Below are positions 28,165 to 56,183 of a DNA stretch of 64,000 nucleotides, in pieces. Made by a program: the position numbers and the translations under genes. Source of the DNA: a virus (lineage: Duplodnaviria; Caudoviricetes); the IMG/VR virus record IMGVR_UViG_3300012953_000012, positions 32,001 to 96,000 of that record. One strand, given 5' to 3'. A model generated the notes under the pieces. That model saw only the letters and a list, made by a program, of their open reading frames with translations. It was not told the origin of the DNA and made no database searches. Position 1 is the stretch's first letter. Each line of letters begins with the position of its first letter.

Positions 28165-28193
28165 GGGGGGCAGCGGCGACACCTTGTCGGGTA
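28165..28193 (+). promoter_or_regulatory. Class II promoter-like motif GGGGGG-N17-CGGGTA
   Basis: 21 nt between end of G-run and TA; upstream of SNF2 helicase. Confidence 0.65.
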
Positions 28194-28208
28194 CTCCTAC
28201 TCACAGGA

Positions 28209-29801
28209 GTGATCCCGATGCCTACCGTCCATGAACGACTGAAGGAAGTCCGCGAGCGACAAGACCTCGCCCTTCCCTGCCCGCCAAACTTCCGAGAGAC
28301 CTTCCTCAAACGCGATGGGAGCGAAGCACCGCTGGTGTTGCGTCCCTACCAGCAGCAGATGGTCGTCCACCTCATGGCGATGAAGCGGTTCGTGGTCGGT
28401 GACGACTGCGGACTGGGGAAGACCATCGAGAGCATCGCTGCGTTGTGCCAGTTGTGGAAGCGTGATCCCGACATGAAGGTGATCGTCCTCACGAAGAAAT
28501 CCAGCGTGCCTCAGTGGGAGTCCGAGTTTGAGCGGTTCACGACTGGGGTCAATGTGTTCATGGCGGTGGGGACTCCGAAGAAGCGGGCGAAGGCACACGA
28601 CGCCTGGGAGCAATCCACAGGCCCGACTGTGCTGATCCAGGGCTACTCGTCCGCGTGCAACGACTTCGGCACCCTCCAGCACTGGGAGGGCTACACCTTG
28701 ATCATGGACGAGGTGACGGTGGTGAAGACCCCAACCACCCGCGTCCACAAGATCTGTCGCCACTATGGTGGTCAGGCAGACCGGGTGTGGGGGCTCACGG
28801 CGACGTTGATCAAGAACAACCTCATGGAGGGCTACGGCATCTACAAGGTCGTGGTCCCGACGCTGTTCCCCATGTCGAAGAACGGCTTCATGAACAACTA
28901 CTGCATCACCCGGATGCAGCGGGTCGCGAACGGACGCCAGGTGCCGATGATCGTCGGCTACAACGCACGAGACATCGAACGGTTCCGGGATGAGATCGAC
29001 CACTACTACCTGGGCCGCCCGAAGCACCTGGTCGCCAAGGACCTTCCGGTGCTGACCACGAAGACCGTGCGTGTCGGCCTCACGAAGTTTCAACACGAGA
29101 AGTACCAGGAAGCCCTGTCCGGGCTGCTGGAGTTGGGCGACGGGGACGAGCGGGAGACGACCCAGTTGACCGCGTTGATCTACTGCCAGGAGATCGTGAA
29201 CCACCCCGCGCTGATCGAGTACCCCGACTACACCTCCGAGAAACTGGACGCCCTGCTGGACATGGTGACCGAGGGTGGCGACCTGCATGATCAGAAGGTC
29301 ATCGTGTTCACCCGGTTCAAGGAGATGGTCAACACGGCGATGCCCGTGCTGGAGAGGGCCAAGATCAAGTGCGTCCGGGTCACGGGTGACGAGAACGAAG
29401 CCCAGCGCAAGGCGGCCATGAACGCCTTCCAGGACCCCAACGACGACACGCGAGTGATCTTCATCACCATGGCTGGCGGCGATGCCATCAACCTCCAGGC
29501 TGCGAAGGCGATGGTCTTCTACGACAGCCCCTGGTCGGCTGGCGACTACCTCCAGATCGTGGGGCGCATGATCCGCATCGGGTCGGATCACGACGCCTGC
29601 TACGCCATCCACCTGGTGTGCAGGGACACCATCGACGAGCGGGTGCAACAGGTCGTCCGCAAGAAGATGGGCCTGATTGAACAGGTGCTCGGTGAACGGG
29701 TCAAGGGAAACAAGGGCGAGGACGTGGTATTCAAGGCCGGGTCCGAGGTCCGGGACATCTTTGACGCCATGGTGCAGGACGCTCGACCGGGAGGGGGGTG
29801 A
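28209..29801 (+). CDS. SNF2-family (SF2) helicase/ATPase
   Basis: LRPYQ, GDDCGLGKT (Walker A), IMDE (Walker B), GLTAT, GGDAINLQAA, QIVGRMIRIG. Confidence 0.92.
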   Translation: MIPMPTVHERLKEVRERQDLALPCPPNFRETFLKRDGSEAPLVLRPYQQQMVVHLMAMKRFVVGDDCGLGKTIESIAALCQLWKRDPDMKVIVLTKKSSVPQWESEFERFTTGVNVFMAVGTPKKRAKAHDAWEQSTGPTVLIQGYSSACNDFGTLQHWEGYTLIMDEVTVVKTPTTRVHKICRHYGGQADRVWGLTATLIKNNLMEGYGIYKVVVPTLFPMSKNGFMNNYCITRMQRVANGRQVPMIVGYNARDIERFRDEIDHYYLGRPKHLVAKDLPVLTTKTVRVGLTKFQHEKYQEALSGLLELGDGDERETTQLTALIYCQEIVNHPALIEYPDYTSEKLDALLDMVTEGGDLHDQKVIVFTRFKEMVNTAMPVLERAKIKCVRVTGDENEAQRKAAMNAFQDPNDDTRVIFITMAGGDAINLQAAKAMVFYDSPWSAGDYLQIVGRMIRIGSDHDACYAIHLVCRDTIDERVQQVVRKKMGLIEQVLGERVKGNKGEDVVFKAGSEVRDIFDAMVQDARPGGG

Positions 29802-29805
29802 TGGA

Positions 29806-29833
29806 GGGGGTAGGGAGGCCCCTCAGTCCGGTA
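29806..29833 (+). promoter_or_regulatory. Class II promoter-like motif GGGGG-N18-CGGTA
   Basis: 21 nt spacing to TA; heads the loader/DnaB/primase-ZBD operon. Confidence 0.65.
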
Positions 29834-29856
29834 AGACAATGAAACAGGAGAGCCCT

Positions 29857-30195
29857 ATGGATGACCCCAACACAACCCTCGATGCCCTTAGGCGAAGCGC
29901 CGATAAAGCCGCTGTTCAGCGTGTGGTCGTCGTGATCCGCGCCGAGACTGACGGTACGACTGAACTCCTCAACTCCTACGATGGGGTGCGCGTCTATGAC
30001 AACGGCGCAGTGGACCCCCGTGTCACGATGGGTGGCCCACTGCCCGTGTTCGCCCGATGGTCGGACTGCGAGTCCTATCTGTTGGAGGACCCCGGCAAGC
30101 GGAGACCGTGCCTCCTTTCCTATGACGAGGCCCAGAGGGTCTTCAAGACCTCCTTCGCGGACTACACCGACTACATCACGGAGCACACCGAATGA
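29857..30195 (+). CDS. Hypothetical protein
   Basis: GGAG SD before ATG 29857; coupled to next gene. Confidence 0.65.
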   Translation: MDDPNTTLDALRRSADKAAVQRVVVVIRAETDGTTELLNSYDGVRVYDNGAVDPRVTMGGPLPVFARWSDCESYLLEDPGKRRPCLLSYDEAQRVFKTSFADYTDYITEHTE

Positions 30196-30917
30196 GTGCC
30201 CCCAGCCCAGAGTGCAGGATCTGTGGGGGGAGTGGGATGGTCGAAGCACCGCCTGACCCACCCCACCCCCCATCGTTCGACAGGTGTGAGTGTACGCTCC
30301 GTAAGGACATCCTCACCAACGTCGAGCGCGGATACCCCGGCCTCTCGGTGGCACCTGTCATTGAGAAGACCCCGCTTCTCGGCCACCACGCCGAGAACGT
30401 CTGGGTCACGACCGGGCAGACCTTCTTCTCCCACCTTCGGCATGTGGCGGTGCGTCAACCGGCAACGTGGTCATTCAAAGTGATCTCGGACGCGGAGTTG
30501 GTCACCGCATGGCTCGCCACGGCGGGTCTGGGGAGCGGTGAGATCATCGACCCGGATGCCTACAAGGTGAGCACAAAGTACATGACCATCCCAGACCTGG
30601 TGTCACCGCCGGACCTGGTGGTGATCCGCATGGGGATCAAGGTGGCCCGCAACGTCGCTGCCCCAGAAGTATTGGCCGAGGCTCTCAACACCCGGCTCCA
30701 CGCCCGTAAGCCCACCTGGGTGTGGGACACCAAGGCTTCCCCTTTGGATGCCGGGAGCCTGTTTTGGTCTACTGAGGTTGCTTCGACCCTGTCCTCATTC
30801 AAGCGCCTCGGGGGCAACGGTGGCGGCGGGATGCCCCCCGGCGGCCCGAAACCCGCTACGAAGAAGCCAAAGCGAGGGGGTATGTCCCGCAAGAAGACTC
30901 TGCGAGGTGGGGGATGA
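30192..30917 (+). CDS. DnaC/IstB-like helicase-loader homolog with N-terminal Cys cluster and no intact P-loop
   Basis: CRICGGSG...CEC; PDLVVIRMG at the Walker B position; EALNTRLHARKPTWV as in DnaC; immediately upstream of DnaB. Confidence 0.6.
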   Translation: MSAPSPECRICGGSGMVEAPPDPPHPPSFDRCECTLRKDILTNVERGYPGLSVAPVIEKTPLLGHHAENVWVTTGQTFFSHLRHVAVRQPATWSFKVISDAELVTAWLATAGLGSGEIIDPDAYKVSTKYMTIPDLVSPPDLVVIRMGIKVARNVAAPEVLAEALNTRLHARKPTWVWDTKASPLDAGSLFWSTEVASTLSSFKRLGGNGGGGMPPGGPKPATKKPKRGGMSRKKTLRGGG

Positions 30918-32395
30918 AGGTACTCCTGCGATCCTCGTTCCGTGATGGGACGAAGGACAACCCGACGCTGTTCCTGCGGAACGCACAGTCACTCCGGGAC
31001 TCCGGGCTCGGGTTCGACCTCCCCGAAGACGGGGCCATCTGGGCCTACGTCACAGACTTCATCGACCAGCATCATCACGTCCCGGACGCTTCGACGATCC
31101 GAGGGCACTTTGACCGGGTCAACCAGGTCCCTGTGGTGGACCGGCTGGACATGCTCTGCGTCGAGAAACCGCGCACTCAGGGCGACTTCCTGCAACTGCT
31201 GGAGTCCCGCGTCCAGGACCGTCGCATCCGTGTGGTCACGGAGGTACTGCGGGAAGCCGCACGCATCGTAGACACTGGGGTCACCATCAAGGAAGGCTAC
31301 GAGGAGCGCATCCTCCGTGGTCCGGCCCACGCTGTCCGCTACGTCCTCGACAACAGCCACCGGGTCATCACCCCGGTCAACGGTGTCCGGCTCACCGGTG
31401 ACGTGACCTCGGACGGCGATGCCTTCCTCAAGGAGTACGAGCGGGTGGAGAACGACCCGCTCGCAGGCATCGGTCAGTTTAGCGGCCTGCGCCAGATGGA
31501 CGTGGCCTTGAAGGGCGCGAAGCGCGGCGAGTTGTGGACCCATGCGGCGTTCACGGGCGGGCTCAAGTCCACGCTGTCGATGAACTGGCACTACAACCAG
31601 GCGGTCTACTACCAGCACAGCAGCGTCCTATTCTCGCTGGAGATGCCCTACCAACAGGTGCGGCGCATCATCTACGCCATCCACTCCAGCCACGAGAAGT
31701 TTGCCCAGGCCCGCAAGGATCTGGGCATCAGCAAGAGCCTCGACTACAGCAAGATCAGGGACGGAGAACTCAGCGCCAACGAGAAGAAGTTCATGGCCGA
31801 GCACGTCGTCCCAGACTTCAATGACCCCACGAACAACTACGGCCACATCCACATCGAGGTCGCTGACCCGGACAAGAGCGACTTCAACGTGAATGACCTC
31901 CGCTCGCGGTGCGAACTGCTGTACTCCAAGGACCCTGCGATCCGCATGGTCACGGTGGACCACGCCGGGCTGATGCAGAGCCGTGGAAAGTACCGGAGCA
32001 CCACCGAGAAACTGAACGAGGTCCTTCGTGATCTCAAGCGTCTCGCTATGTCGTTCAACCGAGGGGCGGGCATCGCGGTCATCGCTCTGTTCCAGATCAG
32101 CCGAGAAGGCTACAAGGCCGCCGAGAAGAACGGCGGTCGGTACAACCTGACTCACCTGTCCTATGCAAACGAGGCCGAGCGTTCGTCTGACATCGTGACG
32201 GCAGGGTGGGTGGACACCGAGTTGCGGGAGTCGAACCTGGTCAAGATCCAGTGCCTCAAGTCCCGTGACAACGCACCGTTCCAGGACTTCTACGCCGGGG
32301 TGTTGTGGCCCTGCCGCCGGTTGATCACCACCAACGATGTCACGCCGCAGACCGCACAGCGTGTAGGACAGGACATCGACCTGGGAGACCTGTAA
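30914..32395 (+). CDS. dnaB: Replicative DNA helicase, DnaB family
   Basis: AFTGGLKST (Walker A variant), LFSLEM, MVTVDHAGL, IALFQISR, NEAERSSDIV, IQCLKSRD. Confidence 0.88.
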   Translation: MKVLLRSSFRDGTKDNPTLFLRNAQSLRDSGLGFDLPEDGAIWAYVTDFIDQHHHVPDASTIRGHFDRVNQVPVVDRLDMLCVEKPRTQGDFLQLLESRVQDRRIRVVTEVLREAARIVDTGVTIKEGYEERILRGPAHAVRYVLDNSHRVITPVNGVRLTGDVTSDGDAFLKEYERVENDPLAGIGQFSGLRQMDVALKGAKRGELWTHAAFTGGLKSTLSMNWHYNQAVYYQHSSVLFSLEMPYQQVRRIIYAIHSSHEKFAQARKDLGISKSLDYSKIRDGELSANEKKFMAEHVVPDFNDPTNNYGHIHIEVADPDKSDFNVNDLRSRCELLYSKDPAIRMVTVDHAGLMQSRGKYRSTTEKLNEVLRDLKRLAMSFNRGAGIAVIALFQISREGYKAAEKNGGRYNLTHLSYANEAERSSDIVTAGWVDTELRESNLVKIQCLKSRDNAPFQDFYAGVLWPCRRLITTNDVTPQTAQRVGQDIDLGDL

Positions 32396-33036
32396 TGCGT
32401 ATGGTCCACGTCCTGCGGAAGCCCTTGTCCGAAGGGACAGTCGCCTCCAACGTCCTCAAGCACGGTTGTGGTGGTTTGAACATCGACGCTTCCCGTATCT
32501 CCAGCACCGGAGATCACATGCGTCCCTTCCAGCCCACGAACAACGACCGTGAGGTCTACGGGGTTCAGGCTGGGTTTCAGCCTACCAACCACAAGGGAGG
32601 CCGTTGGCCTGCCAATGTGATCCTCCAGCACCTCGACGGTTGTCGGTGCGATGGGGTCAAGAGGGTGAAGGCGTGTGGCGGGACGAGGACGTTCACGCGG
32701 TCCACAGCAAAGGATAGAAACGGGCAGACTGGGGCTGCTTACGGTGCGGAGTCGCGCCCCGAAGGAACCGAGCACGTCAACTACGCCGACGCAGAAGGCA
32801 AGGAAACCATCGCCAACTGGATCTGTGAACCCGGCTGTCCCGTTGCTCGGCTGGATGAACAGACAAAACTCTCGCAAAGCAGCAGACCCAACCGGGTCTC
32901 TGGGCAGTTCACTCAGCCCGGTCAGAAGGGTCTTATCTACGGCAACGGCTTCGGCGGTGTGTTGTCTCCCACTTACAACGACAAGGGGGGAGCCAGTCGC
33001 TTCTACAAGCAGGTAGGCGGCAAGGCCGATGGGTAG
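32395..33036 (+). CDS. Stand-alone internal (variable) region of a phage N6/N4 DNA methyltransferase, no catalytic motifs
   Basis: RKPLSEGTVASNVLKHGCGGLNIDASRI, GRWPANVIL, GGASRFY; no DPPY and no FxGxG. Confidence 0.65.
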   Translation: MRMVHVLRKPLSEGTVASNVLKHGCGGLNIDASRISSTGDHMRPFQPTNNDREVYGVQAGFQPTNHKGGRWPANVILQHLDGCRCDGVKRVKACGGTRTFTRSTAKDRNGQTGAAYGAESRPEGTEHVNYADAEGKETIANWICEPGCPVARLDEQTKLSQSSRPNRVSGQFTQPGQKGLIYGNGFGGVLSPTYNDKGGASRFYKQVGGKADG

Positions 33037-33661
33037 GGCAAAGGCGGCAGCAGACCGCATCCGAGCCGAAGTACCCATCGTGGACGTGCTCTATGAGTAC
33101 GGCTACCACGTCCACCCAGACGGAGACGACCGGGAGCAGCAGTTTTCGTGTGATCTCCACGGCGACGGGGCTGACACGAAGCCCTCGGCCCGCGTGTACC
33201 CGGAGTCGGCCTCGTTCCACTGCTTCGCTTGCGGTAGATCACGGGACGCCATCACCCTCGTCCGAGAAAAGGAAGGCATCGACTTCTGGCCTGCCGTGAA
33301 GGCGCTGGAGGGCCGCTACGGTCTTGACCCCCTGCCATGGGAAGGACCCGAAGAGCCCCGCAAGGACAAGGCCGTCCACAAGATCAATGAGGCTCTGGAA
33401 CACACCGCCGAGACCCCGGAACAGTTGCTCAACAGGATCTCCCGGATCATCGACTCGTGTTGCCGAGAGCGCAGCATTCCGGCTGAGAGGTGCGCGGCCT
33501 TCTGGGAGGCACACGACAAGGTAGACACGGCCTGGCGTGAAAACGCGGCCCCCGAAGCCACTGTGAAGGCGGCTGCGAGCAAGGTCCTTCGCACCGTTCG
33601 TGAATACCTGGGGGTAGCCTCCGCTCAGACATCGGTACATCCCTCTGAGGAGAGCACATGA
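33029..33661 (+). CDS. Primase-type CHC2 zinc-finger domain protein without TOPRIM
   Basis: FSCDLHGD...KPSARVY...FHCFACGRSRDAITLV...DFWPAVKAL. Confidence 0.8.
   Translation: MGRAKAAADRIRAEVPIVDVLYEYGYHVHPDGDDREQQFSCDLHGDGADTKPSARVYPESASFHCFACGRSRDAITLVREKEGIDFWPAVKALEGRYGLDPLPWEGPEEPRKDKAVHKINEALEHTAETPEQLLNRISRIIDSCCRERSIPAERCAAFWEAHDKVDTAWRENAAPEATVKAAASKVLRTVREYLGVASAQTSVHPSEEST
33610..33637 (+). promoter_or_regulatory. Class II promoter-like motif GGGGG-N18-CGGTA
   Basis: 21 nt spacing to TA; inside the 3' end of the ZBD gene, upstream of polA. Confidence 0.65.
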
Positions 33662-36417
33662 ACATTCTGGAAAGCCTCAAAGAGATCAGCCGCCCAAAGG
33701 TCGCCAAAAAGCCGTGGATGGAGGCCGTAGATCTACGGCTCGCCACTGTGGATGACCTGGACACCATCGCACAGGAGTGCATCGACGCAGGCATCTACGC
33801 CCTGGACCTGGAAACGACGGGTCTGGACCAGCGAGCCTTTGCGGGCGGGTCTGGACGCAAAGAGACGGTGGACAAGATCGTCGGCTACTGCATCGCCCCC
33901 AGCCCGGAGAAGGGTTGGTACATCCCCGTCCGGCACAGGGCTGAAGGGGCAGCAGCAAACGTCCCGCCACGCCTTGCGGTGGACCTGGTCAACCGCATCC
34001 AGGAGACCGGGGCGCAGGTCGTCTTCCACAACGCCAAGTTCGACCAGAAGTTCCTCGACTACGAGCCCTCAGGCCGGGCCGGGGATTGGGATGACAACAC
34101 AACGTGGCACGACACCATGATTCTGGCCTACCTGCGGAACACCCGCACACGGGCGAAGGGTCTCAAGCCCCTGTCGAAGAATGAACTCGACCGGGAGATG
34201 ATCGAGATCAAGGAGTTGTTCCCACCCGAGGCCGTCAAGGCGAAGAAACTCGACTTCTCGACCCTGGACCCCACCTGGGAGCCTGTCGTCTGGTACGCAG
34301 CGGCAGACGCCGTGAACACCCTGGCGCTGTTCCACATCCTCCACCCCTCGGTCGTGGAGAAAGACAATCAGGGCCGCCACCAGAAGGGCATCTACAAGTT
34401 GGAGAAGGCGTGCCTGCGAGCAACCATGTGGATGGAACAGAACCGCATCAACATCGACCGTGACCGTCTGGAAGGGTTGATGCGCCTGGGCCAAGATGAG
34501 TGGTGGGGGTGCATCAACGAGGTCTACGACGAAGCCTCCACCATGCTGGAGCGCGACGTCCGCCCCTCGTGGGTCAAGGAGATGCAGACCGGCTACGACC
34601 CCAACACTCTGGACCCCAACTACATGGAGGTCCGAGAGCGGGCGATGGTGGGGTCACAGGACAAGGCGTTGGAGCCTATCGAGAGGTCTGTGCCTCGGCT
34701 CGATGACCCCCGCAGGCAGGAGAGCGTCGAGTTCCCAGCGGTCTACGACGTGACCATCCCCGCCAACCTCGGGATCATGCTGCGGGAGATGGGGGTTAAG
34801 GGCCTGGCGGTGACCGAAAAATCCGGCCAGGTCAAGACGAGCAAGGACGAGTTGGACCGCGTGATCTCGGAGGCTGGTGACCAGTTCCCGTTCATGGCGA
34901 AGGTCAAGCGGTTCCGTGAGGTCAGCAAAGGGTTGGGCACGTTCCTGTTCCCGATCTGGTGGGACACGACGCCCGAGCGCAGTCCGGGGGGCTGTGTGTG
35001 GGCCAACTTCAACGGGCAGAAGGTAGACACGGGCCGTTTCAGCACCCCGACCCCACGAGACAAGCACAAGGATCGCTTCATGGGTCAGGTTCGGTGGGGC
35101 GTCCACATGACCCCAGCGACCTACGACAAGTCCAAGCCCGAGTGCGTCCGGCGCATCCGGGAGGTCGTCACAGCGCGTCCTGGGCACGTCCTGTTCGCCA
35201 TCGACTACAGCGGCGTCGAGTTGCGGATCGTCACCAACCTGAGCGGCGAGCCGAAGTGGATCAACGAGTTTTTCCGGTGCTCCAGTTGCGAGCACACCTT
35301 CCCACGGGACGCCCGCCCGCCTCCCTTCTGCCCCGAGTGTGGGTCCGACAAGATCGGTGATCTCCACAGCCTCACGGCCATCGGTGTCTTCGGGGACGAG
35401 ATCAAGGGCACGGGTGAGTTCAAGCAGCGCCGCCAGGAGGCAAAGGCCCTCAACTTCGCCATGGCCTACGGTGGGGGTGGTTCCGCTGCCCAGCGTGCTG
35501 TCGGTGTGGACCGGGAGGAAGGCTGGCGCATCAAGAACCAGTACGACAAGACCTACAAGGTGCTGCGGAAGTGGTGGAAGAAGCAGCACCTGACTGCCCG
35601 CAAGCAGAAGTACGTCACGACCGCCTACGGTCGGAAGTACCCCCTTCCCGACATCGACCACGAGATGGGTGGCTTCCGGTCGAAGGCCGAGCGCAACAGC
35701 GTCAACGGACCTGTCCAGGGCACTTCTGCCGACATCATGAAGTTGGCGATGGCGAAGTTGTACCGGGCCTTCAAGAACCGAGACTGGCTCGACCTGGTGC
35801 TCATGACCATCACCATCCACGATGAGTTGGTCTTTGAGATTGACGAGCGGATCGCTGGTGAGGCCGTTGAGGTCATCGAGAAGATCATGGTGGACGATGC
35901 CGCGAAGGGTCTCCAGTGGCTCGTACCGCTCAAGGTGGATGTGGAGTTTGGCGACAACTGGACCGTGCCCTTCAACCTGACCGAGATGACCTGGAACCAG
36001 GGCGGCGGGAAGTGGACGGAGCACTGGGCCAAGGTGTTCCCGAAGCACTACCAGCACTACCTCTCGTGTGGTGGGGATCCCGTCAGCGGGGTGGAGGCCC
36101 CCACGGATGATCTCGCGACAACCACAGAGAAGGGTGTCCCTCTCCGAGATGTCAGCGAGGCCGAGATTGGAATCCGGTCACCTGACCGAACCAGCCCAGC
36201 CCGGAAGCCTGAAAAGGAAGGCACGTCCTACGTCTACCGTTTGCGGTCCTTGGACGCCCGGAATGCTGAGTGCCTGGCCCGCGTGATCCTGCGTTGTGAG
36301 GGTCGAGGCACCGATACCTTGTTTGTACGAGACAACAGAGGGAACGACCTCCTGGAGCGGCCCGTGCGGGTCGCTTACGAGGAGTTTCGTGTGATCGCCG
36401 ACTACGAGGGCCTGTGA
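33658..36417 (+). CDS. polA: DNA polymerase family A with 3'-5' exonuclease
   Basis: ALDLETTGL, FHNAKFD, YAAADA; motif A AIDYSGVELR, motif B RQEAKALNFAMAYG, motif C TIHDELVFE. Confidence 0.95.
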   Translation: MNILESLKEISRPKVAKKPWMEAVDLRLATVDDLDTIAQECIDAGIYALDLETTGLDQRAFAGGSGRKETVDKIVGYCIAPSPEKGWYIPVRHRAEGAAANVPPRLAVDLVNRIQETGAQVVFHNAKFDQKFLDYEPSGRAGDWDDNTTWHDTMILAYLRNTRTRAKGLKPLSKNELDREMIEIKELFPPEAVKAKKLDFSTLDPTWEPVVWYAAADAVNTLALFHILHPSVVEKDNQGRHQKGIYKLEKACLRATMWMEQNRINIDRDRLEGLMRLGQDEWWGCINEVYDEASTMLERDVRPSWVKEMQTGYDPNTLDPNYMEVRERAMVGSQDKALEPIERSVPRLDDPRRQESVEFPAVYDVTIPANLGIMLREMGVKGLAVTEKSGQVKTSKDELDRVISEAGDQFPFMAKVKRFREVSKGLGTFLFPIWWDTTPERSPGGCVWANFNGQKVDTGRFSTPTPRDKHKDRFMGQVRWGVHMTPATYDKSKPECVRRIREVVTARPGHVLFAIDYSGVELRIVTNLSGEPKWINEFFRCSSCEHTFPRDARPPPFCPECGSDKIGDLHSLTAIGVFGDEIKGTGEFKQRRQEAKALNFAMAYGGGGSAAQRAVGVDREEGWRIKNQYDKTYKVLRKWWKKQHLTARKQKYVTTAYGRKYPLPDIDHEMGGFRSKAERNSVNGPVQGTSADIMKLAMAKLYRAFKNRDWLDLVLMTITIHDELVFEIDERIAGEAVEVIEKIMVDDAAKGLQWLVPLKVDVEFGDNWTVPFNLTEMTWNQGGGKWTEHWAKVFPKHYQHYLSCGGDPVSGVEAPTDDLATTTEKGVPLRDVSEAEIGIRSPDRTSPARKPEKEGTSYVYRLRSLDARNAECLARVILRCEGRGTDTLFVRDNRGNDLLERPVRVAYEEFRVIADYEGL

Positions 36418-36713
36418 TGGACAACGAAGAACTCACCCAACAACTGACCCGGCTGACGCATACCGTCACGGAGTTACTTCTGTGGGTTCAGGAGGCCGAG
36501 TCGAAGGAGGTGTTGCCCCCAGGCACCCTCCGGGAAGCCCATCGCGTTGCTGAACGGGGGCGCGTCGTGAGTAGGATCAAGACCATGCGCGAGACGCTGG
36601 ACATGATCGACCAGGCCGATGATCTGACCAGCCTCCGGGTATCTTTGAGGGACTCCCTGAAACAACTGGAGGGTCGTGTGGATTCTATGAGAGGGGCACA
36701 TGGGAAGACGTAA
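36417..36713 (+). CDS. Hypothetical helical protein
   Basis: TGATG overlap with polA stop. Confidence 0.65.
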   Translation: MDNEELTQQLTRLTHTVTELLLWVQEAESKEVLPPGTLREAHRVAERGRVVSRIKTMRETLDMIDQADDLTSLRVSLRDSLKQLEGRVDSMRGAHGKT

Positions 36714-37071: not shown

Positions 37072-37097
37072 TTACAGGGCTCACCAGAGGTAGCATT

Positions 37098-37661: not shown

Positions 37662-37664
37662 CGC

Positions 37665-45537: not shown

Positions 45538-45541
45538 GGCG

Positions 45542-47458: not shown

Positions 47459-47488
47459 TCCCCCACCCCACACGCCAGGAGGTATCCC

Positions 47489-48352: not shown

Positions 48353-48624
48353 TGTCTGCTGTTCAACCCCTCGTGGCTGTAGCCACGATCCCCGTCCCGA
48401 CCGGCTGGCGGTTCGTCCTGGAGGACGACATGCCCAGCATCGAGCGTGACGTGGGAGACTTCACCCTCACCGTTGGTTTGGACGACGGCAAGTGGCGCTG
48501 GTGGCTCTGCCCCCGTGGCCACAGCGGTGCCGTCCCAAGCCCCGGCAGCGGTGCGGACATGGTGGACGCCATCTGGCAGGTCTTCGACGCCCTCGCCCGC
48601 CGCCTTGATGGAGGTGGAGCATGA
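48349..48624 (+). CDS. Hypothetical protein
   Basis: GGAGG SD, GTGA overlap. Confidence 0.6.
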   Translation: MMSAVQPLVAVATIPVPTGWRFVLEDDMPSIERDVGDFTLTVGLDDGKWRWWLCPRGHSGAVPSPGSGADMVDAIWQVFDALARRLDGGGA

Positions 48625-48839
48625 CCCGCTGTGACCGCTGCCCGAAGCCCCTCGGCGTCCATCGGGTGTCGTGGTTCAACCTCGACACCATCTGCACTCG
48701 CTGTCAGGCCCAGGAAGAAGCCCACCCCGACTACGCCTATGCCCGCGATGTAGAACGCAAGCGGGTACAGGTTGGTGACTACAACTTCGTTGGAGTCGGC
48801 TGGCCTGGAGTCAACGGCAGGGTGCTCCGCACCCGGTAG
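48621..48839 (+). CDS. Conserved small phage zinc-binding protein (CDRC...FNLDTICTRC...GDYNF.G.G)
   Basis: Recognisable phage family pattern. Confidence 0.65.
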   Translation: MTRCDRCPKPLGVHRVSWFNLDTICTRCQAQEEAHPDYAYARDVERKRVQVGDYNFVGVGWPGVNGRVLRTR

Positions 48840-48872
48840 ACGGGCTATCGCCTCCGACTGTTCGGAGGCGAT
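48835..48872 (+). promoter_or_regulatory. Class III motif (GGTAG-ACGGG-CTATC) plus 11-bp hairpin covering the SD
   Basis: ATCGCCTCCGA-CTGT-TCGGAGGCGAT (48847-48872); GGAGG 48864-48868. Confidence 0.8.
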
Positions 48873-48876
48873 GCTC

Positions 48877-50046
48877 GTGAGCCGTGAGATCCAGATAGGA
48901 CACCCGTGCCCGCACCTCATCATTGAGGAGGTGGTCGCGTTAGGGGCGGATAAGAAATCACTGTCCACCCGTGCGCCTGTGTCATCAGCCAACAGCGTCA
49001 GGATCCTGGTCAACAATCAGGTCTATGTGCCGCCTGGGGGCCTCTACTCCAAAGCCATTCTTTCGGGAAGCGTGGGTCCTTACCGCATTGAGAAATGCGT
49101 GGGGTTCGCAGGACCGGAAGGCAACACTCTCACCGTGACGGCCTCGCAAGGGACTGTGACCGTTGACCTCCCCCTGTCGCAACGCCTCAGCGTGGATCGG
49201 CTGGTCCGCGCCTTGAAGTTGACGCCTCTGGATGGTCTGGTTGGGATCACCAGCGTCAACGGCTCGGTGACGTTCACGGACAACCACGCCACAGGCTCGG
49301 AGTCCGTGGTCAAGGTCAGCGGCGACGGTGCCGATTCTTTGGGTTTCGTTCAACGGGGGGCTCGCGGGCGAGAAATCTATCCGGGGTGGACCCTGGTTTC
49401 GCGACCGGACGTGCTTCCGAGTGCTGATCTGCGCGGGCTGTTCCCTGTTCCTGCCCGGTATCCTCGCTTCAAGAAGCCGGTTCCCAACGGGTCGGACTTC
49501 AAGGTCACCTACACCGCGATGCCCGAGAGGTGTCCCCGGTGCCAGGCCACCTACATCGAGAACGACTACCGCTTCAACCAGATGGGCGAGGTACGGACCA
49601 TCATCAACGAAGACCTCCTCTATCAGGCGTGCTTGAAAGCGATCCTGACGAGGAAGGGGTCGAACCCGTACCACACAGGCTATGGATCCTCCATCATGAC
49701 CCGTGTCGGGCGCAAGCGGATGGCAGCAGCCGCTGGAGCCATCCGGCAGGACATTATCCAGGCACTCCGAGGGGTCCAGGGCATTCAAGGAGGTCAGCGG
49801 AAGTTCCAGCAGGTGACTGACCGAGAGAGGCTGTACCGCGTCGAGGATGTGTCCGTGACCCCCACGGATGATCCCACGGTCGTGCGTGTCGGTGTGGTCG
49901 TCGTCAACGGCAGCAACCAACCTGTATCGCTGAACATCGTCTACTCGGCTCCGGGGGCGATAGCCCTCGCTGGGTCCAACGGTCAGTCCCTCGGGGTCTC
50001 GGGTCTGTCGCAATCCCAAACACGACGCTTCCTGATGGACGGGTAG
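48877..50046 (+). CDS. Baseplate wedge protein with C-terminal gp25/W-like domain
   Basis: LYQACLKAILTRKGSNPYHTGYGSSI...IIQAL...RVEDVSV...VVRVGVVV is gp25-like; precedes baseplate J. Confidence 0.75.
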   Translation: MSREIQIGHPCPHLIIEEVVALGADKKSLSTRAPVSSANSVRILVNNQVYVPPGGLYSKAILSGSVGPYRIEKCVGFAGPEGNTLTVTASQGTVTVDLPLSQRLSVDRLVRALKLTPLDGLVGITSVNGSVTFTDNHATGSESVVKVSGDGADSLGFVQRGARGREIYPGWTLVSRPDVLPSADLRGLFPVPARYPRFKKPVPNGSDFKVTYTAMPERCPRCQATYIENDYRFNQMGEVRTIINEDLLYQACLKAILTRKGSNPYHTGYGSSIMTRVGRKRMAAAAGAIRQDIIQALRGVQGIQGGQRKFQQVTDRERLYRVEDVSVTPTDDPTVVRVGVVVVNGSNQPVSLNIVYSAPGAIALAGSNGQSLGVSGLSQSQTRRFLMDG

Positions 50047-50055
50047 AGGTAAGGC

Positions 50056-53000
50056 ATGTCAGACACATTGATCTACAGCCCGGACGGCAAACTCACGCAA
50101 ACGGTCAACTTCAGCACCACGCGGCAGACCCGATTCTTTGAGGGGGTCCTCCCTCAGGACGCTGCGGAAGTGCTGGTCTCCATCAACGGGAGTGGGTTTT
50201 CCAGTGATGAGAGCCTGGTCCAGTGGGGGGACGGGGTGTGGACCATCCCCAGCCCGCTCTATGAGCCGGACGGGTTGGTCCTCCTGGAGGGAGTCAACAC
50301 GGTCGAGATCAAAGCCATCCTCGGCAACGGCTCCGCGACCCCGACAGCCAGCGCGACGGTTCGCCTCACCACTGACCAGGATGTGCTCCTGACCGTGGGG
50401 TCACCGACCAACATTTCCATGACGCAGGAGAACGACACCGTCACCGTGCGGGCCGAAGCCCCTGAGACAGCAGACGGGTTCCAGGGCATGAACTACTACG
50501 CCTCGGCAAACGCCGGGGGAGGGGTCAGCGGCTACACCCGGATCAACGTGTCGCTGGTGGCCGATGGCCTCGCCCGGCAGGAGGTCCAGCAGTTTGCCGC
50601 ACAAGCGGTGGACCTCCCCGTGCAAGTGGATGCTGACGGCAACCCGACAGCCGATCCGATGTACTACCGCCTCACAGGCCGACAGGAGGACGAAGACGAA
50701 GGGGTGCTCGTCACCGACTACAATGAGCGGTACGAGGTCCCTGAGACAGCCCGGACCATCCGCTTGAACATGACCTTGGACCAGGTGCGGGACGTGGTCT
50801 CCTACGACTTCACCCACAACCGCTCAGGCTCCCCGCAGTCCACCCCGGCGACCGTCCGGGTGAGTGAGTTTGTCAACCTGAGCCCCTCTTCGCCCCTCTA
50901 CTACGTCGTCACAGCAGTCTTCTACGACCGGGTGACGGACACTGAGTACGAGTCGGCATACTCAGCCGAGGTTGTAGGCCAGCCTATGCAGGTGACGACG
51001 GCCATCGGATCGATCCCAACGGTCTCTCGTCAGAACATCGTCACGCAGTTCGTCAGGGCCATCTTCCGATCCAACCCTCAGATCAAGGTCGAGGCCGGGT
51101 CAGTGCTCCGGGACACGGTGATCGATCCGTACTCCTCCGAGAGTGAGCGGCTGCGGTTCCTGCTGGATTTCTACCAGCGTGCGAGAACCCCGACACTACT
51201 CCTCCAGATCGATGACCCCACCGCCAGTGGGACCAGCATCCCTGTGGCACAGTCCTCCTACAAGCAAGCACTCCAGTCGGCGCTGTACCTGGACAATGCC
51301 CTCGCCACACAAGGGCTGATTGACTCGGCCTTTGAGTCGTATGCCAGCAACTTCGGCCTTCAGCGGAAGTCCGGGATCGGTGCGCGTGGTGAGGTGCTGT
51401 TTTTCACCCGCACCAAACCACAGTCCTCCCTCGTGATCCCGTTGGGGACGATTGTGTCTGGCGGGGGTTCCAACTTCGCCACCTCAAGGGCCGCATCCAT
51501 CTCGTCGGCCCAGATCGCTTCCTACTACAACCCGGTCAACGGCTACTATCAGATCTCAGTGCCGGTCCAGGCCACGACAACAGGGTCGAACACCAACGTC
51601 GGCACCGGCCAGATCACGAGCGTGATCTCCACCCTCGGTGTCTCCCTGTCCGTCACCAACCTGGCAGCGATGATTGGGGGGCGGGATGGGGAGTCGAACC
51701 TCTCATTGACGGCGCGAGTCCAGAACCGCCTGGCCTCTGTGGACTCGGGAACGGAGCGTGGGTACTTGCAGACAGCAGCGGACGTTCCGGGCGTGGTCAA
51801 GGCCAATGTCGTGGCAGCGGGCAACCCCCTCATGCAGCGCGATCTCAATGCAGACGGGCAACACATGGGCGGCAAGGTGGACATCTGGGTGCAAGGCACC
51901 AATCTGGCATCGTTGACTGACAACTTCGCCTTCACCTTTGAGATCGCCCAGGACATCCAGTTTCAGATCCTCAGTGTGCCGGACCTGACGTTCCGGGCGT
52001 TGGACCCTGACCTGTCATCGGCTGACCCCATCGTTGAGATGCTGGATGACCCGGACATCGGGTATGAGATGAGAAACGCATCCACGGGCGAGGTCTTTGA
52101 TCTCGCTGGGGTCAAGGTGCTTTCCTATGACACCATCCAGTTGGACACCTCGGTCTCTCAGCCAGCCGTGGACCTCACCGACGTGGTCCTGGCCTCGTAC
52201 CGGCGGCGAACAGGAAGTAAGTTTGTCCTCCTGCGGCAGCCTGCTGAGGAGATCGTCTCTGTCGTGGGGTCGGTCAGCGGGACTCTCCCTACTGATTCCT
52301 ATCTCCTGAACCACCCCGATGCCCCCCTCGCTTACGGGCGCTCCACCCTGGCCGAGGACTCCCTTCAGATCGACGGTTACAGGGACGCGAATGGCAACAC
52401 CATTCCCAGCGGGGACAGCATCACGGTGACGGACGAGCCTCATGTCATGGTCGGCCAGTACGCTGAGTTCCTGGACAGCCTGGGGGCCAACTACTTGACC
52501 ATCGTGGTCAAGAGCGCGGACGGACTCATCACCTACAACGGACCCAACGACCCTTCCGGTGCGCCGGACTACCAGGTGACCCTGGGGACGCAGACCGTAG
52601 CAGTGAGCATCACCCGGACAGACGCGAGCACGATCCCCAACGGGGCTTCCGTGCTGGTCTCCTACGAGCACGACGAGAACTTCACCGTCACCTACACTAC
52701 GAATCTCATTGTCTCCACCACCCAGAACGCGGTTGACTTGCAGAAGCACGCGACCGCTGATGTAGTGGTGAAGGACGCCATCCCGGCCCCTCTCGACATT
52801 GAGGCAACGGTGGTCGTGCGGCAGGGGCGTGAGACCTCAAAGGTGGACGCGGACCTGCGAACCAACATGGCCACCTTCTTCACCAATCTGCGCCTGGGTG
52901 ATCCCGTCCGGCAGTCGGACATCATCGACGTCATCGAGCAGACCAGTGGAGTCTCGTATGTGGTGGTCCCCCTGAACCTGTTGGCCCGCTCGACTGGAAG

Positions 53001-53517
53001 CACAGTCGTTCGGGAAGACATTTCCACGGACACCGTGTCGGAGAGCGTCCTGCTGACGTCCCTCTCGTCCAACCAAAGCATCGTCTACATCCTCACTGAG
53101 AACCTCTCAGCGGCTACCGTCAACGGTGGTGGGGGAGCCGGTGAGTTCCGGGCCGTCTTCCAGGACGAGGTCGAGATGAACCTGCTTCCGGCAGCCGCCA
53201 CACTGGTGACACTGGGCACGGAACCCGGCTCATCCTACATCGTCGGAAGTGATGGTGTGGTGATCGAAGGGTACTCGGATGACGAGACCTTGAAGACGCA
53301 AGGCTACGTTACGGACAAGGCCATCACCCAGCAGCGCAGGGCACTGACCGCGAACCGGGTGTTGGTATCTGTCACCCCTGGTGATGCTCCCACAGAGCAC
53401 CAGTACGCTACCACCTATGTGGTGGGGGAGGGCGCTGGAGCCAGGAACGTCGAGCCTGGTGGTGCGGAGTACTGCACCGAAGGCTTCCTCACATTCACCT
53501 ACGACGAGGATCGGTGA
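50056..53517 (+). CDS. Baseplate J-like (gp6/gp47-type) protein with N-terminal Ig/Fn-like extension
   Basis: GSVLRDTVIDP, ARGEVLFF, VIPLGTIV, VPVQATTTGSNTNVGTGQI, GGRDGESNLSLTARV...SGTERGY. Confidence 0.88.
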   Translation: MSDTLIYSPDGKLTQTVNFSTTRQTRFFEGVLPQDAAEVLVSINGSGFSSDESLVQWGDGVWTIPSPLYEPDGLVLLEGVNTVEIKAILGNGSATPTASATVRLTTDQDVLLTVGSPTNISMTQENDTVTVRAEAPETADGFQGMNYYASANAGGGVSGYTRINVSLVADGLARQEVQQFAAQAVDLPVQVDADGNPTADPMYYRLTGRQEDEDEGVLVTDYNERYEVPETARTIRLNMTLDQVRDVVSYDFTHNRSGSPQSTPATVRVSEFVNLSPSSPLYYVVTAVFYDRVTDTEYESAYSAEVVGQPMQVTTAIGSIPTVSRQNIVTQFVRAIFRSNPQIKVEAGSVLRDTVIDPYSSESERLRFLLDFYQRARTPTLLLQIDDPTASGTSIPVAQSSYKQALQSALYLDNALATQGLIDSAFESYASNFGLQRKSGIGARGEVLFFTRTKPQSSLVIPLGTIVSGGGSNFATSRAASISSAQIASYYNPVNGYYQISVPVQATTTGSNTNVGTGQITSVISTLGVSLSVTNLAAMIGGRDGESNLSLTARVQNRLASVDSGTERGYLQTAADVPGVVKANVVAAGNPLMQRDLNADGQHMGGKVDIWVQGTNLASLTDNFAFTFEIAQDIQFQILSVPDLTFRALDPDLSSADPIVEMLDDPDIGYEMRNASTGEVFDLAGVKVLSYDTIQLDTSVSQPAVDLTDVVLASYRRRTGSKFVLLRQPAEEIVSVVGSVSGTLPTDSYLLNHPDAPLAYGRSTLAEDSLQIDGYRDANGNTIPSGDSITVTDEPHVMVGQYAEFLDSLGANYLTIVVKSADGLITYNGPNDPSGAPDYQVTLGTQTVAVSITRTDASTIPNGASVLVSYEHDENFTVTYTTNLIVSTTQNAVDLQKHATADVVVKDAIPAPLDIEATVVVRQGRETSKVDADLRTNMATFFTNLRLGDPVRQSDIIDVIEQTSGVSYVVVPLNLLARSTGSTVVREDISTDTVSESVLLTSLSSNQSIVYILTENLSAATVNGGGGAGEFRAVFQDEVEMNLLPAAATLVTLGTEPGSSYIVGSDGVVIEGYSDDETLKTQGYVTDKAITQQRRALTANRVLVSVTPGDAPTEHQYATTYVVGEGAGARNVEPGGAEYCTEGFLTFTYDEDR

Positions 53518-54482
53518 TGGGCGACGAACTTCATGTCTACGACTTCGACGGGACTCTGTTCCGCAGTCCCCACGCCCCAGCGGTGTGGGACGGCGATTGG
53601 TGGAGTGATCCCGCGAGCCTGCTGCCTCCGTGCGTACCTGAGAAGCCTGGCCCAGCCTGGTGGATTTCTCCGACCGTGGGATCAGCCAAACAGTCGATCT
53701 CCAACTCGGATGTCTTCGCCATTATGATGACCGGACGCCGGGACGCATCTGCCTTCCGCTACCGGGTGCCGGAACTGCTGAAGCAAAAGGGACTCAACTT
53801 CGACGCGGTGCATCTGGCGCAAGGGTCAGGCGACTCGCTGATGGGCAAGATCAAGACCATCAGCAAGTACCTCGCCCGTTACCCGAACATCGACACGGTG
53901 CGGATCTGGGACGACCGGGGGAGCCACCTCCGCAAGTTCAAGAGCCTCCTGGAGCGTGAGGGCTACACTGTCCACATCGACCATGTCCGGGCGAAGTCAG
54001 CCGATCCGCTGTGCAGCGAGATGGACTTCGCTCAGAAGGACACTCCGAAGCAGAAGCCTTCCTACATCGGGGTCTTCCTGGACGCCCGAAGCAAGGCTGC
54101 TCTCGTGAATGAATACAACCTGGCCCACGACAAGGTGAAGACCGACCATGTGACCCTGGGGTTCAAGTTGACCCCAGACCTGGAAGCCATGATCGGGCAG
54201 CCCGTCAAGATGCAGGTGGTCGGCTACGCTGACGATGATCTCGGACAGGCGGTCGCCGTGGACCTTCCGGGCGATGTCCCCTTCGCGAAGAAGGGCATCC
54301 CGCATGTGACCCTGACGCACGACAGGTCAGTGGGGCCGAAGTACAGCAACCAACTACTGGCGGGTGGTCACGACGGAAAGCGCGGACCTGCCTTGACTGG
54401 GATCATCGACACGTTCCCACGGAGGCTCACTCGCAGAACGGCATCGGCGGCTCGGGTGGCTGCACTGCATAAGCGTCGTTGA
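53517..54482 (+). CDS. HAD phosphatase (Swiss-army-knife RNA-repair type) fused to 2H phosphoesterase
   Basis: VYDFDGTLFRSP, MTGR, IWDDR; two HxT motifs DHVTLGF and PHVTLTH. Confidence 0.8.
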   Translation: MGDELHVYDFDGTLFRSPHAPAVWDGDWWSDPASLLPPCVPEKPGPAWWISPTVGSAKQSISNSDVFAIMMTGRRDASAFRYRVPELLKQKGLNFDAVHLAQGSGDSLMGKIKTISKYLARYPNIDTVRIWDDRGSHLRKFKSLLEREGYTVHIDHVRAKSADPLCSEMDFAQKDTPKQKPSYIGVFLDARSKAALVNEYNLAHDKVKTDHVTLGFKLTPDLEAMIGQPVKMQVVGYADDDLGQAVAVDLPGDVPFAKKGIPHVTLTHDRSVGPKYSNQLLAGGHDGKRGPALTGIIDTFPRRLTRRTASAARVAALHKRR

Positions 54483-54843
54483 TCTCTGCCACGCGAGGAT
54501 CATCGACCCCCAGACCCCGGCACCACGACACTCCCTTGTAGGTGTCAGTCGGTGTCCAGTGGCAACGAGCCTCACCACGCTTGCCCTTCTTCAAGGCTCG
54601 CTCTGCTTTGAGGGCTTCGGAGCGGTCAGCGTAGGGTCCGTAGATGGCCTTCAGTTTCCATGGGCGGTGCTTGCTCGTGTAGCGGCCTCCCCCGACGATC
54701 TCCCCGTTGTGCTGCCGTAGGCGGCGCTTCGGGTCGGTGGTCATGCCGACGTAGTGGAACCCTGGCAGGGGTTTGCCTCGCTTGCCAACGCGAACCTGCT
54801 GGCTCTGGATGACGTAGACGAAGTACGGCTTGGGGTCACCCAT
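54427..54843 (-). CDS. GIY-YIG nuclease, SLX1-like
   Basis: YFVYVIQS...HYVGMTTDPKRRLRQHNGEIVGGGRYTSKHRPW...EALKAE. Confidence 0.88.
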   Translation of the reverse strand: MGDPKPYFVYVIQSQQVRVGKRGKPLPGFHYVGMTTDPKRRLRQHNGEIVGGGRYTSKHRPWKLKAIYGPYADRSEALKAERALKKGKRGEARCHWTPTDTYKGVSWCRGLGVDDPRVAEINDAYAVQPPEPPMPFCE

Positions 54844-55198
54844 CGTCCTTCCCTGTTGCTGGTCGAGGCACCGCGCTCTCTACGTCCACGACAGCACGAG
54901 CAGTCTTCGCTGCACGGCCTCGCCTGACAGACGCAGCACGAATCTGAGACCCCACAGGGCCAGCGTCGATCTCACAAGCCACGGAGCAGAAGTGCTGTGG
55001 CTTGACATCGTAGTGGGCGTAAGGCCGACCACAGACGAGACAGTCAGAGGTCGCCATAGCCATCAGTAGACGCAACGCACGACAGCAAGCGTCACAAGGC
55101 CACCCACCACCATCGGAAACACCGTACCGAGACGGGTGAGGAAACCGGGGGTGAACAGGTCTGGGGGGAGGTGGGGGGACATCAGAGGCAGGCTCCAT
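54836..55198 (-). CDS. Cys-rich hypothetical protein
   Basis: CDACC, CLVCG, FCSVAC; start uncertain. Confidence 0.45.
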   Translation of the reverse strand: MEPASDVPPPPPRPVHPRFPHPSRYGVSDGGGWPCDACCRALRLLMAMATSDCLVCGRPYAHYDVKPQHFCSVACEIDAGPVGSQIRAASVRRGRAAKTARAVVDVESAVPRPATGKDDG

Positions 55199-56090
55199 CT
55201 CGCCACACCGCCGCGACCTCACGGATCATGCGGAGCATCCGGGCGACCAATGCAGGGGTCTCGCCAATCTCAGCAGCGATTTCTGACTTCCGGTAGCCGT
55301 TCACCATCAACCTGGTGCAGAGTGCGGCTACGTTGGGGTCATAGTCCCTCACCCATGCTTCGTGTCGGACCCGGTCGGTCAGACGCTGGGTAGCGGAAGC
55401 CATCTCCGAGAAGTCGTGCTGTCCCGCATCCACGGTCGCCAGATCGGCACAGGACACATCCTCCATGACCCCTTCGACATTCAGCACTCCAAACTGCTCG
55501 TTTCGGCTGAGACGGGAGTACCGGCGTCGGTAGTTGCTCACGATGCAACCGCAGACCATGTGGACGTAGTGGCCGAAGGAAGACTTGCTGGGGTCGAACG
55601 GGCACTTGCCGTTGTTTCGTACCAGCAGCCCTTTGTAGATCTCCTGGAGGACATCCTCGGGGTCGTAGCCGTACTTGATCACCCGCCTACCGTAGCCTGC
55701 GTAAAACAACTTGCGGACCTCGTGGCCCCGCTTCGCCAGGTCGATACCAGGTGCTTTGGCGATACTCAGTGCCGGGCTGGTCCTGATCTTTGGGACCGTC
55801 TTCTCGACGGTGATCTGCGGGCCGAACATCGTCAGGGTGTCCAGCGTCAAGGCAGGTTCAGGGCGTCGATGGCCCCCACGGCGGAAGTACCTGTCGAATG
55901 TGATCTTCGGATCACGGTGGTGGGGACCTGGTCGGGGGTCGCGGTTGACCAGTGCCATGATGGTCTTCCGGGCGCTCGGGTAACGGACGGAACCACTCGG
56001 CCACTGCACCAGAAATCCATTGGGGTCAGCCACAACCGGGTGGCCTCCGTGTTCAGTGCGGGCGTAGTAAGTTCCTTCCGTTCTCAGCAT
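55182..56090 (-). CDS. Phage sigma-70/ECF-like RNA polymerase sigma factor with N-terminal extension
   Basis: Region 2-like DPEDVLQEIYKGLL...FDPSKSSFGHYVHMV...NYRRR; region 4-like GYRKSEIAAEIGETPALVARML. Confidence 0.75.
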   Translation of the reverse strand: MLRTEGTYYARTEHGGHPVVADPNGFLVQWPSGSVRYPSARKTIMALVNRDPRPGPHHRDPKITFDRYFRRGGHRRPEPALTLDTLTMFGPQITVEKTVPKIRTSPALSIAKAPGIDLAKRGHEVRKLFYAGYGRRVIKYGYDPEDVLQEIYKGLLVRNNGKCPFDPSKSSFGHYVHMVCGCIVSNYRRRYSRLSRNEQFGVLNVEGVMEDVSCADLATVDAGQHDFSEMASATQRLTDRVRHEAWVRDYDPNVAALCTRLMVNGYRKSEIAAEIGETPALVARMLRMIREVAAVWRDGACL

Positions 56091-56154
56091 TGGCGATCTC
56101 CAGCGATGTCAAAGGGTGGGGCAAAATCACTCAGGGTGGTTGGTTATCCCACAA

Positions 56155-56183
56155 TACCGACACCAAGTGAAGCGTGACCCCCC
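56155..56183 (-). promoter_or_regulatory. Class II promoter-like motif GGGGGG-N18-CGGTA upstream of the sigma gene
   Basis: 21 nt spacing to TA on minus strand. Confidence 0.65.

Follow-up and report, generated by a model that had tools for sequence, protein, structure and literature searches.

In bacteriophage SPO1, middle promoters of the form AGGAGA-N17/18-TTTnTTT are recognized by the sigma factor gp28, which is followed in the cascade by gp33/34. Phage T4 proceeds from MotA/AsiA to gp55, and its middle promoters combine a MotA box at -30 with a host sigma70 -10 element, the host sigma factor being appropriated. Group 4 or extracytoplasmic function (ECF) sigma factors use promoters such as GGAAC-N16/17-CGT, and their genes are commonly preceded by a promoter of their own and autoregulated. 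SigB/SigF-type promoters read GTTT-N12-15-GGGTAT. In phiEco32 (gp36) and phage 7-11, a divergent two-domain phage sigma factor redirects host RNA polymerase to a phage-only consensus (PMC8948821, PMC12276001; PDB 9m7y). Here, we analyzed a two-box motif, termed class II, in a window of 64,000 nucleotides (nt) that comprises bases 32,001-96,000 of the 205,564-base pair (bp) virus contig IMGVR_UViG_3300012953_000012 (G000). The motif consists of a G-rich upstream box (G5T box, R-GGGGG-T) and a downstream box Y-S-GGTA, and, judged from its sequence and placement, it almost certainly represents the promoter class of some reader. In the literature searched, neither the class II consensus nor its occurrence in this uncultured clade of marine giant phages was described, and a study of phage G predicted promoters with generic software only (PMC12484599).

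G000 has a GC content of 62% and a CheckV completeness of ~46%. Our own gene call comprised 212 genes (91% coding, 9.2% intergenic). In the window, very large structural genes are followed by a replication block (W28218-36417; the prefix W denotes window coordinates) that encodes an SNF2 helicase, a DnaB-like helicase, a primase zinc ribbon, and a family A DNA polymerase as assigned by Pfam. No near-identical or closely related phage record was found for G000 in GenBank, and a search for sequencing runs containing its DNA returned only DNA runs from marine and sponge metagenomes, with no RNA run among them. Related contigs and genomes, designated by L and G numbers, were recruited by PolA and sigma searches in IMG/VR. 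PolA identity to G000 was 88% for L001 and 71% each for L002 and G001, the latter being a 297-kb relative that was fetched whole and has an intergenic share of 8%.

A bipartite motif upstream of DNA-metabolism genes

The first-pass annotation of the window had listed six copies of a G run followed at a nearly fixed distance by CGG(G)TA. All six were present, at W28165, W29806, W33610, W37044, and W39158 on the plus strand and at W56183 on the minus strand, and TA followed the final G, as claimed, at a distance of 21 nt in five of the six and of 22 nt in one (W39158). When the spacing was fixed as GGGGG-N19-GGTA, the window held 5 matches versus 0.66 expected, and 0 of 100 dinucleotide shuffles reached 5. 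GGGGG...GGTA pairs were then counted over the whole of G000 at every gap from 5 to 39. Gap 19 yielded 16 pairs versus a mean of 1.5 at the other gaps (Poisson P ~6e-12), and 12 of these 16 pairs fell within the 9.2% of the DNA that is intergenic (binomial P ~5e-10). The motif is thus not equally frequent inside genes on both strands, which was one of the outcomes that the annotation had named as speaking against its proposal. A weight matrix built from clear class II sites found 13 sites in G000 at 19.9-26.3 bits, the next best place scoring 14.9. The result was replicated in G001, in which 21 pairs were counted at gap 19 (17 of them in the intergenic 8%) and 9 at gap 20 (6 intergenic), with P values of ~5e-9 and ~1e-15. 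Four class II-like matches in L081/G010 were rejected, as they belonged to a different repeat (GGGGGTGTTACCCCC...).

A logo derived from the 30 gap-19 sites of G000 and G001 gave the consensus R-GGGGG-T, 16 free bases, and t-Y-S-GGTA. The boxes are separated by 18 nt, and the spacing tolerates one additional base (a 19-nt spacer in some copies). The T after the G run was present in 26 of the 30 sites. The base preceding the GG of GGTA was G in 17 sites and C in 13, and the base before that was C in 17 and T in 13. Thus, the GGTA core of the originally annotated CGG(G)TA box was retained, but its leading C was not, and the box is better written Y-S-GGTA. Beyond the A, no conservation was seen in the logo: T followed the A directly in 8/30 sites and occupied the sixth hexamer position (four bases past the A, -7) in only 3/30. 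The spacers showed no conserved positions, although their second half tended to be C-rich. Class II sites share their orientation with the next gene, and the median distance from the A to the start codon downstream is 26 nt (range 10-126, mostly 10-76). In the divergent gap at G000 107,940-108,085, two copies stand back to back, each directed toward its own gene. Two short boxes with a free spacer of fixed length (+/-1), located upstream of transcription units and co-oriented with them (12/16 pairs intergenic in G000 and 17/21 in G001), are what is expected of a bipartite promoter of the sigma70 family.

The six copies in the window are placed as follows. Site 1 (W28165-28193, plus strand), which reads GGGGGG-N-CGGGTA, has its A 25 nt before the start of the SNF2 helicase gene (W28218-29801; Pfam SNF2-rel_dom, E 7e-29). 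Site 2 (W29806-29833, plus strand) stands at the head of the operon W29857-33661, among whose genes are those for the DnaB-like helicase (Pfam DnaB_C) and the primase zinc ribbon (Pfam Zn_ribbon_DnaG). Site 3 (W33610-33637, plus strand) lies 21 nt before the PolA start (W33658-36417; Pfam DNA_pol_A, E 9e-61) and, instead of occupying an intergenic gap, falls within the 3' end of the primase-like gene that comes before PolA. Site 4 (W37044-37071, plus strand) precedes by 27 nt the gene W37098-37661, for which only a weak match to pyrimidine-dimer glycosylase below the cut-off was obtained (Pfam Pyr_excise, E 0.008). Site 5 (W39158-39187, plus strand) is the copy with the longer spacing and stands before a gene of unknown function that ends at W40803; its matrix score of 10.8 bits is low solely because of the additional base. 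The site overlaps the gene call because the caller took an upstream GTG (W39163) as the start. The in-frame ATG at W39226 is the likely start, and this leaves the site intergenic. At site 6 (W56155-56183, minus strand), the A precedes the ATG of the sigma gene (W55182-56090) by 65 nt.

Over the whole of G000, the 13 strong sites head the SNF2 helicase gene, the DnaB/primase operon, PolA, the weakly matching glycosylase-like gene, an RNase_T-type exonuclease, a zinc-ribbon plus clamp-loader-like pair, a small gene followed by RecD2, RecA, several genes of unknown function, and the sigma gene. The Pfam matches, together with the confirmation of the sigma factor described below, uphold the annotated statement that the motif heads replication genes and the sigma gene. 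This gene set is a DNA-metabolism regulon, of the kind usually found in the middle (delayed-early) class of large lytic phages. Middle timing is likely on the basis of this gene content.

The motif was found before the orthologs of the SNF2, DnaB-operon, PolA, and glycosylase genes in L001, L002, and G001, with unrelated spacers. Counterparts of site 1 occurred in all three. Those of site 2 in L001 and L002 had gap 20, as did those of site 3 in L001 and G001, the L002 counterpart of site 3 having 4 G's. Counterparts of site 4 were present in L001 and G001. The L001 counterpart of site 5 had the canonical spacing and the identical GGTAGTACC continuation; gap 20, which is the spacing of site 5 in the window, is common in G001. 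For 9 of the 13 strong G000 sites an exact-pattern counterpart stood ahead of the G001 ortholog, and a tenth stood ahead of a small gene treated below. At the SNF2 and sigma sites of four genomes, the boxes were 95-100% identical versus 25-40% for the spacers. Ahead of sigma orthologs, class II was present in L062, G001/L063, L064, L073, and L059 and degenerate in L066; it was retained down to ~52-56% sigma identity on contigs of 51-65% GC. Such retention across a range of GC contents suggests that the reader travels with the phage and is not that of one host. The pattern GGGGGT-N18/19-GGTA was also counted against a control in which it was read backwards, with ratios of 12:1 in G002, 4:1 in G003, 3:0 in G004, and 6:2 in G005. 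No class II enrichment was detected in five more distant genomes, in which the sigma factor is 33-50% identical. Overall, at least six related phage contigs carry class II at orthologous sites.

The small gene mentioned above bears on the position of the transcription start. It encodes a protein of 159-162 amino acids (aa) with a conserved N-terminus (MS.P...EGIF) and a GGGSCLWG..CPHGH motif, and it was absent from our automatic gene call (G000 195,022-195,547, equivalent to L056 9022-9547; G001 252,564-253,080; L117 ~1450-1950). Its ATG lies 10 nt past the class II A in G000/L113 and G001/L115 and 11 nt past it in L117, and the intervening bases are unrelated across the lineages. No Shine-Dalgarno sequence was found ahead of the gene in these three lineages. 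Its mRNA is probably leaderless, starting at or beside the ATG. With such a leaderless message, the simplest reading, the TA would be at about -12/-11 and the G run would extend from about -38 to -34, a geometry that matches sigma70-family promoters except for an upstream box placed slightly more distally. A transcription start ~10 nt past the A appears more likely than the start 5-8 nt after the TA that had been envisaged at first.

The sigma factor gene and other putative promoter classes

The gene W55182-56090 (minus strand), whose transcription is predicted to start from class II site 6, encodes a protein of 302 aa. No Pfam match above the cut-off was obtained for it (Sigma70_r2, E 0.04). 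The protein belongs to a family of 915 proteins of ~300 aa encoded on large phage contigs, and a profile of 29 family members matched the sigma-H structure 3mzy in the PDB (E 1.7e-4) over residues 146-301, which cover regions 2-4. An AlphaFold model was obtained with a mean predicted local distance difference test score (pLDDT) of 82, and its top matches in Foldseek and VIA were all sigma factors (Z 8-9.4). In VIA, the sigma2 domain aligned with 5uxx_A (Z 8.8; root mean square deviation (rmsd) 2.5 over 80 aa) and the sigma4 domain with 3mzy (Z 9.4) and 3vfz (Z 8.6, rmsd 1.7). An N-terminal extension of ~110 aa is followed by sigma2 (~112-200) and sigma4 (~222-302), so that both domains that define the Sigma70 protein family are present. 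The gene had been called sigma-like on first inspection, and this was borne out: profile and model indicate that W55182-56090 is a true, highly diverged sigma factor that has sigma2 and sigma4 and, in addition, a domain at its N-terminus.

In the 240-bp gap upstream of the sigma gene, the class II site is the only recognizable promoter, and no co-directional gene lies upstream. A comparison of W56155-56160 with its orthologs in L062, L063, L064, and L059 showed that the sigma-gene sites read TAnnnT after the GG in four of six lineages (TATTGT, TACTGT, TATAGT, and TACTAT) versus 3/30 elsewhere. The site ahead of the sigma gene may be doubly recognized, by host sigma as well. A sigma70-type reading of site 6 by way of a TTGATA just upstream of the G run was ruled out, as the spacing would be 28 nt. 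The G run of site 6 also serves as 3' arm in an inverted repeat, GACCCCAC ... GTGGGGTC (W56176-56208), located in the gap that separates the divergent sigma gene from the W56330 gene.

Two other strong motif classes were recognized in the same genomes. The late class (class III) reads CGGTAG-N5-CTAT with rigid spacing, has no upstream box, and heads structural genes; examples are found at W4464-4477, W8661-8674, W20719-20732, W37665-37678, and W48835-48848. G000 has 24 copies, of which 23 are intergenic, and G001 has 41, of which 38 are intergenic. Compared with its backwards control, the late motif scored 9:1 in G002, 8:0 in G006, and 6:0 in G008; as the last two genomes show, it extends further along the sigma family than class II does. 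The early class (class I) comprises ~20 near-identical copies in G000, each with a T-tract, CGTTAAAA, N12, and CTTCCGTAAGTA, ahead of small genes of unknown function (W7453-7530, W44699-44740, W46486-46630, W62158-62250, W63134-63160, and G000 160-171 kb). Its counterpart in G001, GGGGGGTTCAACTC...ATCTCCGTATAG, occurs in ~27 copies throughout the genome. The class has diverged between G000 and G001 with the cores GTTmAA and TCCGTA kept, and in G001 its G run can pair with the following C run as a hairpin. A Pfam search of 20 class I-driven genes for a transcription factor found none. Given these two classes beside class II, a temporal programme is very likely from the sequence.

GGTA preceded by C or G is common to the downstream box of class II and the upstream half of class III. 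The '-10' box is thus not specific to class II, and part of the recognition machinery may be common to the classes. GGGTA alone was found in 50 of 212 upstream regions of G000 versus 9 expected, partly as a box GGGTA-S-N-GT located 10-13 nt past the late CTAT. This box (often GGGTACAGTCCCC) lies 17-30 nt ahead of the start codons in many gene leaders, e.g. at G000 9994(-), 18606, 112915, and 192555 and at W8859, and it is sometimes followed by a hairpin that takes in the Shine-Dalgarno sequence.

A canonical host-type promoter, gggTTGACC-N17-TAnnAn, is almost unique in G000 and stands ahead of a gene for a 429-aa protein, G000 188076-189365. The promoter maps to G000 189,440-189,480 (L055 ~13440-13480, minus strand), with further positions at G001 248,498 and L110 ~2740-2780; it is kept before the G001 ortholog and has the form TTGGCT/TACGAT in G002. 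The protein has a C-terminal winged helix. Foldseek returned weak sigma rows only (E 0.1-1), a profile of the protein had no match in the PDB, and the winged helix at the C-terminus took up the VIA matches. As homologues are also present in genomes that lack class II, the protein was not assigned as a reader. It is a candidate for the first regulator of the phage programme. A fourth promoter, of host type, ahead of another regulator gene suggests that there are more than three tiers. Two small proteins matched Pfam Sigma70_r4 above the cut-off, one of 77 aa (G000 175,750-175,983) and one of 202 aa with two region-4-like helix-turn-helix units (G001 271,749-272,357). They could be accessory -35-box readers or appropriators, and they are further candidates for the reader of class II.

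Candidate readers of class II

The promoter activity of class II, its start site, its timing, and the identity of its readers are what we infer from these comparisons. In the mechanism that we favor, host core RNA polymerase would read class II with a phage-specified specificity factor made earlier, and not with the host primary sigma. The G5T box would take the place of the -35 element, and Y-S-GGTA would be recognized with its TA at about -12/-11. In mid-infection, class II would turn on the replication, recombination, and repair regulon together with the ECF-like phage sigma gene, and the sigma factor W55182-56090 would most likely then read the late class CGGTAG-N5-CTAT. For this statement as a whole, i.e. 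a middle, phage-specific promoter class, a separate and earlier phage-specified factor as its reader, and a driven sigma factor that reads the late class, we consider the chances evenly balanced. Because the sigma gene has only a class II site ahead of it and no co-directional upstream gene, another factor must fire class II first. The further reach of the late motif along the sigma family fits a sigma factor that reads class III. The host primary sigma is an unlikely reader of class II because the sites lack TAnnnT and because the host-type promoter in G000 looks different. With respect to a phage RNA polymerase, a search of G000, G001, and G002, which are incomplete contigs, detected no beta or beta' domains, and a divergent enzyme might have been missed; the free spacer is at odds with a single-subunit RNA polymerase.

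Several observations weigh against the favored mechanism. Three of the 13 strong class II sites lie partly or wholly within coding sequence. If the TA is at -12/-11, the upstream box is ~3 bp farther upstream than a standard -35 hexamer. The only clear sigma factor in G000 is itself behind a class II site, and as G000 represents ~46% of the genome, the reader of class II is possibly off the contig. Finally, class II has GGTA in common with the late class, and the early class contains a GTA core, so the readers are possibly not fully separate.

Alternatively, the sigma factor W55182-56090 might read its own class II promoter in a positive autoregulatory loop and also use the late GGTA, a cofactor making the switch. 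A sigma2 and a sigma4 domain suit a two-box promoter better than they suit the compact late motif without a -35 box, ECF sigma genes typically carry their own promoter upstream, GGTA with C or G before it is common to both classes, and the TAnnnT at four of six sigma-gene promoters could let host sigma prime the loop. However, the loop would have no clear primer, as the sigma gene lacks any other recognizable promoter or a co-directional upstream gene. Moreover, class II is absent from relatives with a sigma factor of 33-50% identity, some of which retain the late motif, and replication genes that depend on a sigma factor of their own class would start slowly. We regard such self-reading as somewhat unlikely. 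In a broader version, a single GGTA-specific phage sigma would read both the replication promoters (with the G5T box) and the late promoters (no upstream box, CTAT at the start), accessory proteins would time the switch, and the programme would be launched by G000 188076-189365, which alone has a conserved host-type promoter. This version we hold to be unlikely.

An alternative sigma factor of the host, e.g. of the SigB/SigF or ECF type, would be in line with the finding of no phage reader, and about half of the class II sites read GGGTA, which is the core of SigB/SigF-type -10 boxes. Yet the upstream box and the spacing are unlike those of SigB/SigF (GTTT, 12-15 nt), and no T follows the A. 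The motif is retained in phages of 51-65% GC, which probably have different hosts, and it changes together with the phage lineage; dependence of the replication genes on a stress sigma would also be risky for a lytic phage. A host alternative sigma is thus a distinctly improbable reader. The motif might also be no promoter at all but an operator for a phage DNA-binding regulator, or a hairpin of G run and C run that acts on read-through transcripts of the replication cluster. Several sites indeed trail the previous gene without a terminator, one lies inside a gene, and ~30% of the spacers hold a C run able to pair with the G run. Nevertheless, two short asymmetric boxes with a free spacer that tolerates one additional base are of the sigma type and resemble neither a hairpin nor a dimeric operator. 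The strict orientation, the tight distance to the start codon, and the back-to-back copies in a divergent gap argue in the same direction, as do the position of the motif as the sole candidate signal before the divergently placed sigma gene and the leaderless gene 10-11 nt downstream of the A in three lineages. A non-promoter function is therefore highly improbable.

Significance and comparison with described systems

The giant marine phages of this clade have not been cultured, and for the majority of their genes no function is known. If validated, a promoter grammar consisting of the early class, G5T-N18-GGTA, and CGGTAG-N5-CTAT would sort hundreds of unknown genes into temporal classes by sequence and would indicate the regulators that drive the phage programme. 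The class II motif and the sigma factor are ready-made candidates for orthogonal promoter/sigma parts, and the poly-G upstream box would be an unusual target for a sigma4-type domain. Reading of GGTA by a single sigma, if true, would mean that one core box is shared across temporal classes in uncultured megaphages.

The first-pass annotation had placed class II as a middle class in a three-tier cascade reminiscent of SPO1. The promoter-class behavior of the motif and the presence of two other strong motif classes agree with this view. By analogy, a three-tier SPO1-like cascade is a plausible and reasonable model that is probably incomplete. The sigma gene is behind class II, and the distribution of the late motif tracks the sigma family; the sigma-like fold matches of the G000 188076-189365 protein are weak. 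As in SPO1, phage-specific two-box promoters unlike the host consensus stand ahead of replication genes and of the next sigma gene, and the host core polymerase would be re-used. The sequences are wholly different, class II having a poly-G upstream box and a GGTA downstream box that also occurs in the late class, and G000 is unrelated to SPO1 in host and in phage lineage.

In T4 middle promoters, as in class II, a phage-specific upstream box replaces the host -35 element before early-middle replication genes, and small sigma4-like proteins exist in G000 and G001 as well. A T4-type middle promoter retains the host TAnnnT, and T was found at -7 in only 3/30 class II sites; recognition by sigma70 plus an appropriator is thus unlikely. 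ECF promoters have in common with class II two short boxes, a rigid spacer, a small sigma2/sigma4 sigma factor, and a motif ahead of the sigma gene. ECF promoters have an AAC-containing -35 box and a CGT-type -10 box 16-17 nt apart. Class II differs in that it lacks the AAC and has GGTA in place of the CGT, with a predicted start ~10 nt on; its regulon is phage DNA metabolism. It was therefore not classified as an ECF promoter. The annotated likeness to SigB/SigF -10 boxes held for the GGGTA core in about half of the sites and failed for the -35 box (G5T, not GTTT), the spacing (18 nt, not 12-15), and the following T (8/30), and C preceded GGTA in 13/30 sites; a SigB/SigF-type promoter was rejected on these grounds.

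The model of W55182-56090 aligned with phiEco32 gp36 (9m7y chain F) with a Z of 7.8 over 173 residues, among many other sigma factors. W55182-56090 differs by its additional N-terminal domain of ~110 aa, and, unlike class II, phiEco32 promoters essentially consist of a -10-type box and have no conserved upstream element. By analogy with SPO1, T4, and phiEco32/7-11, class II appears to be a new example of a phage-only consensus that times the replication genes and the next regulator.

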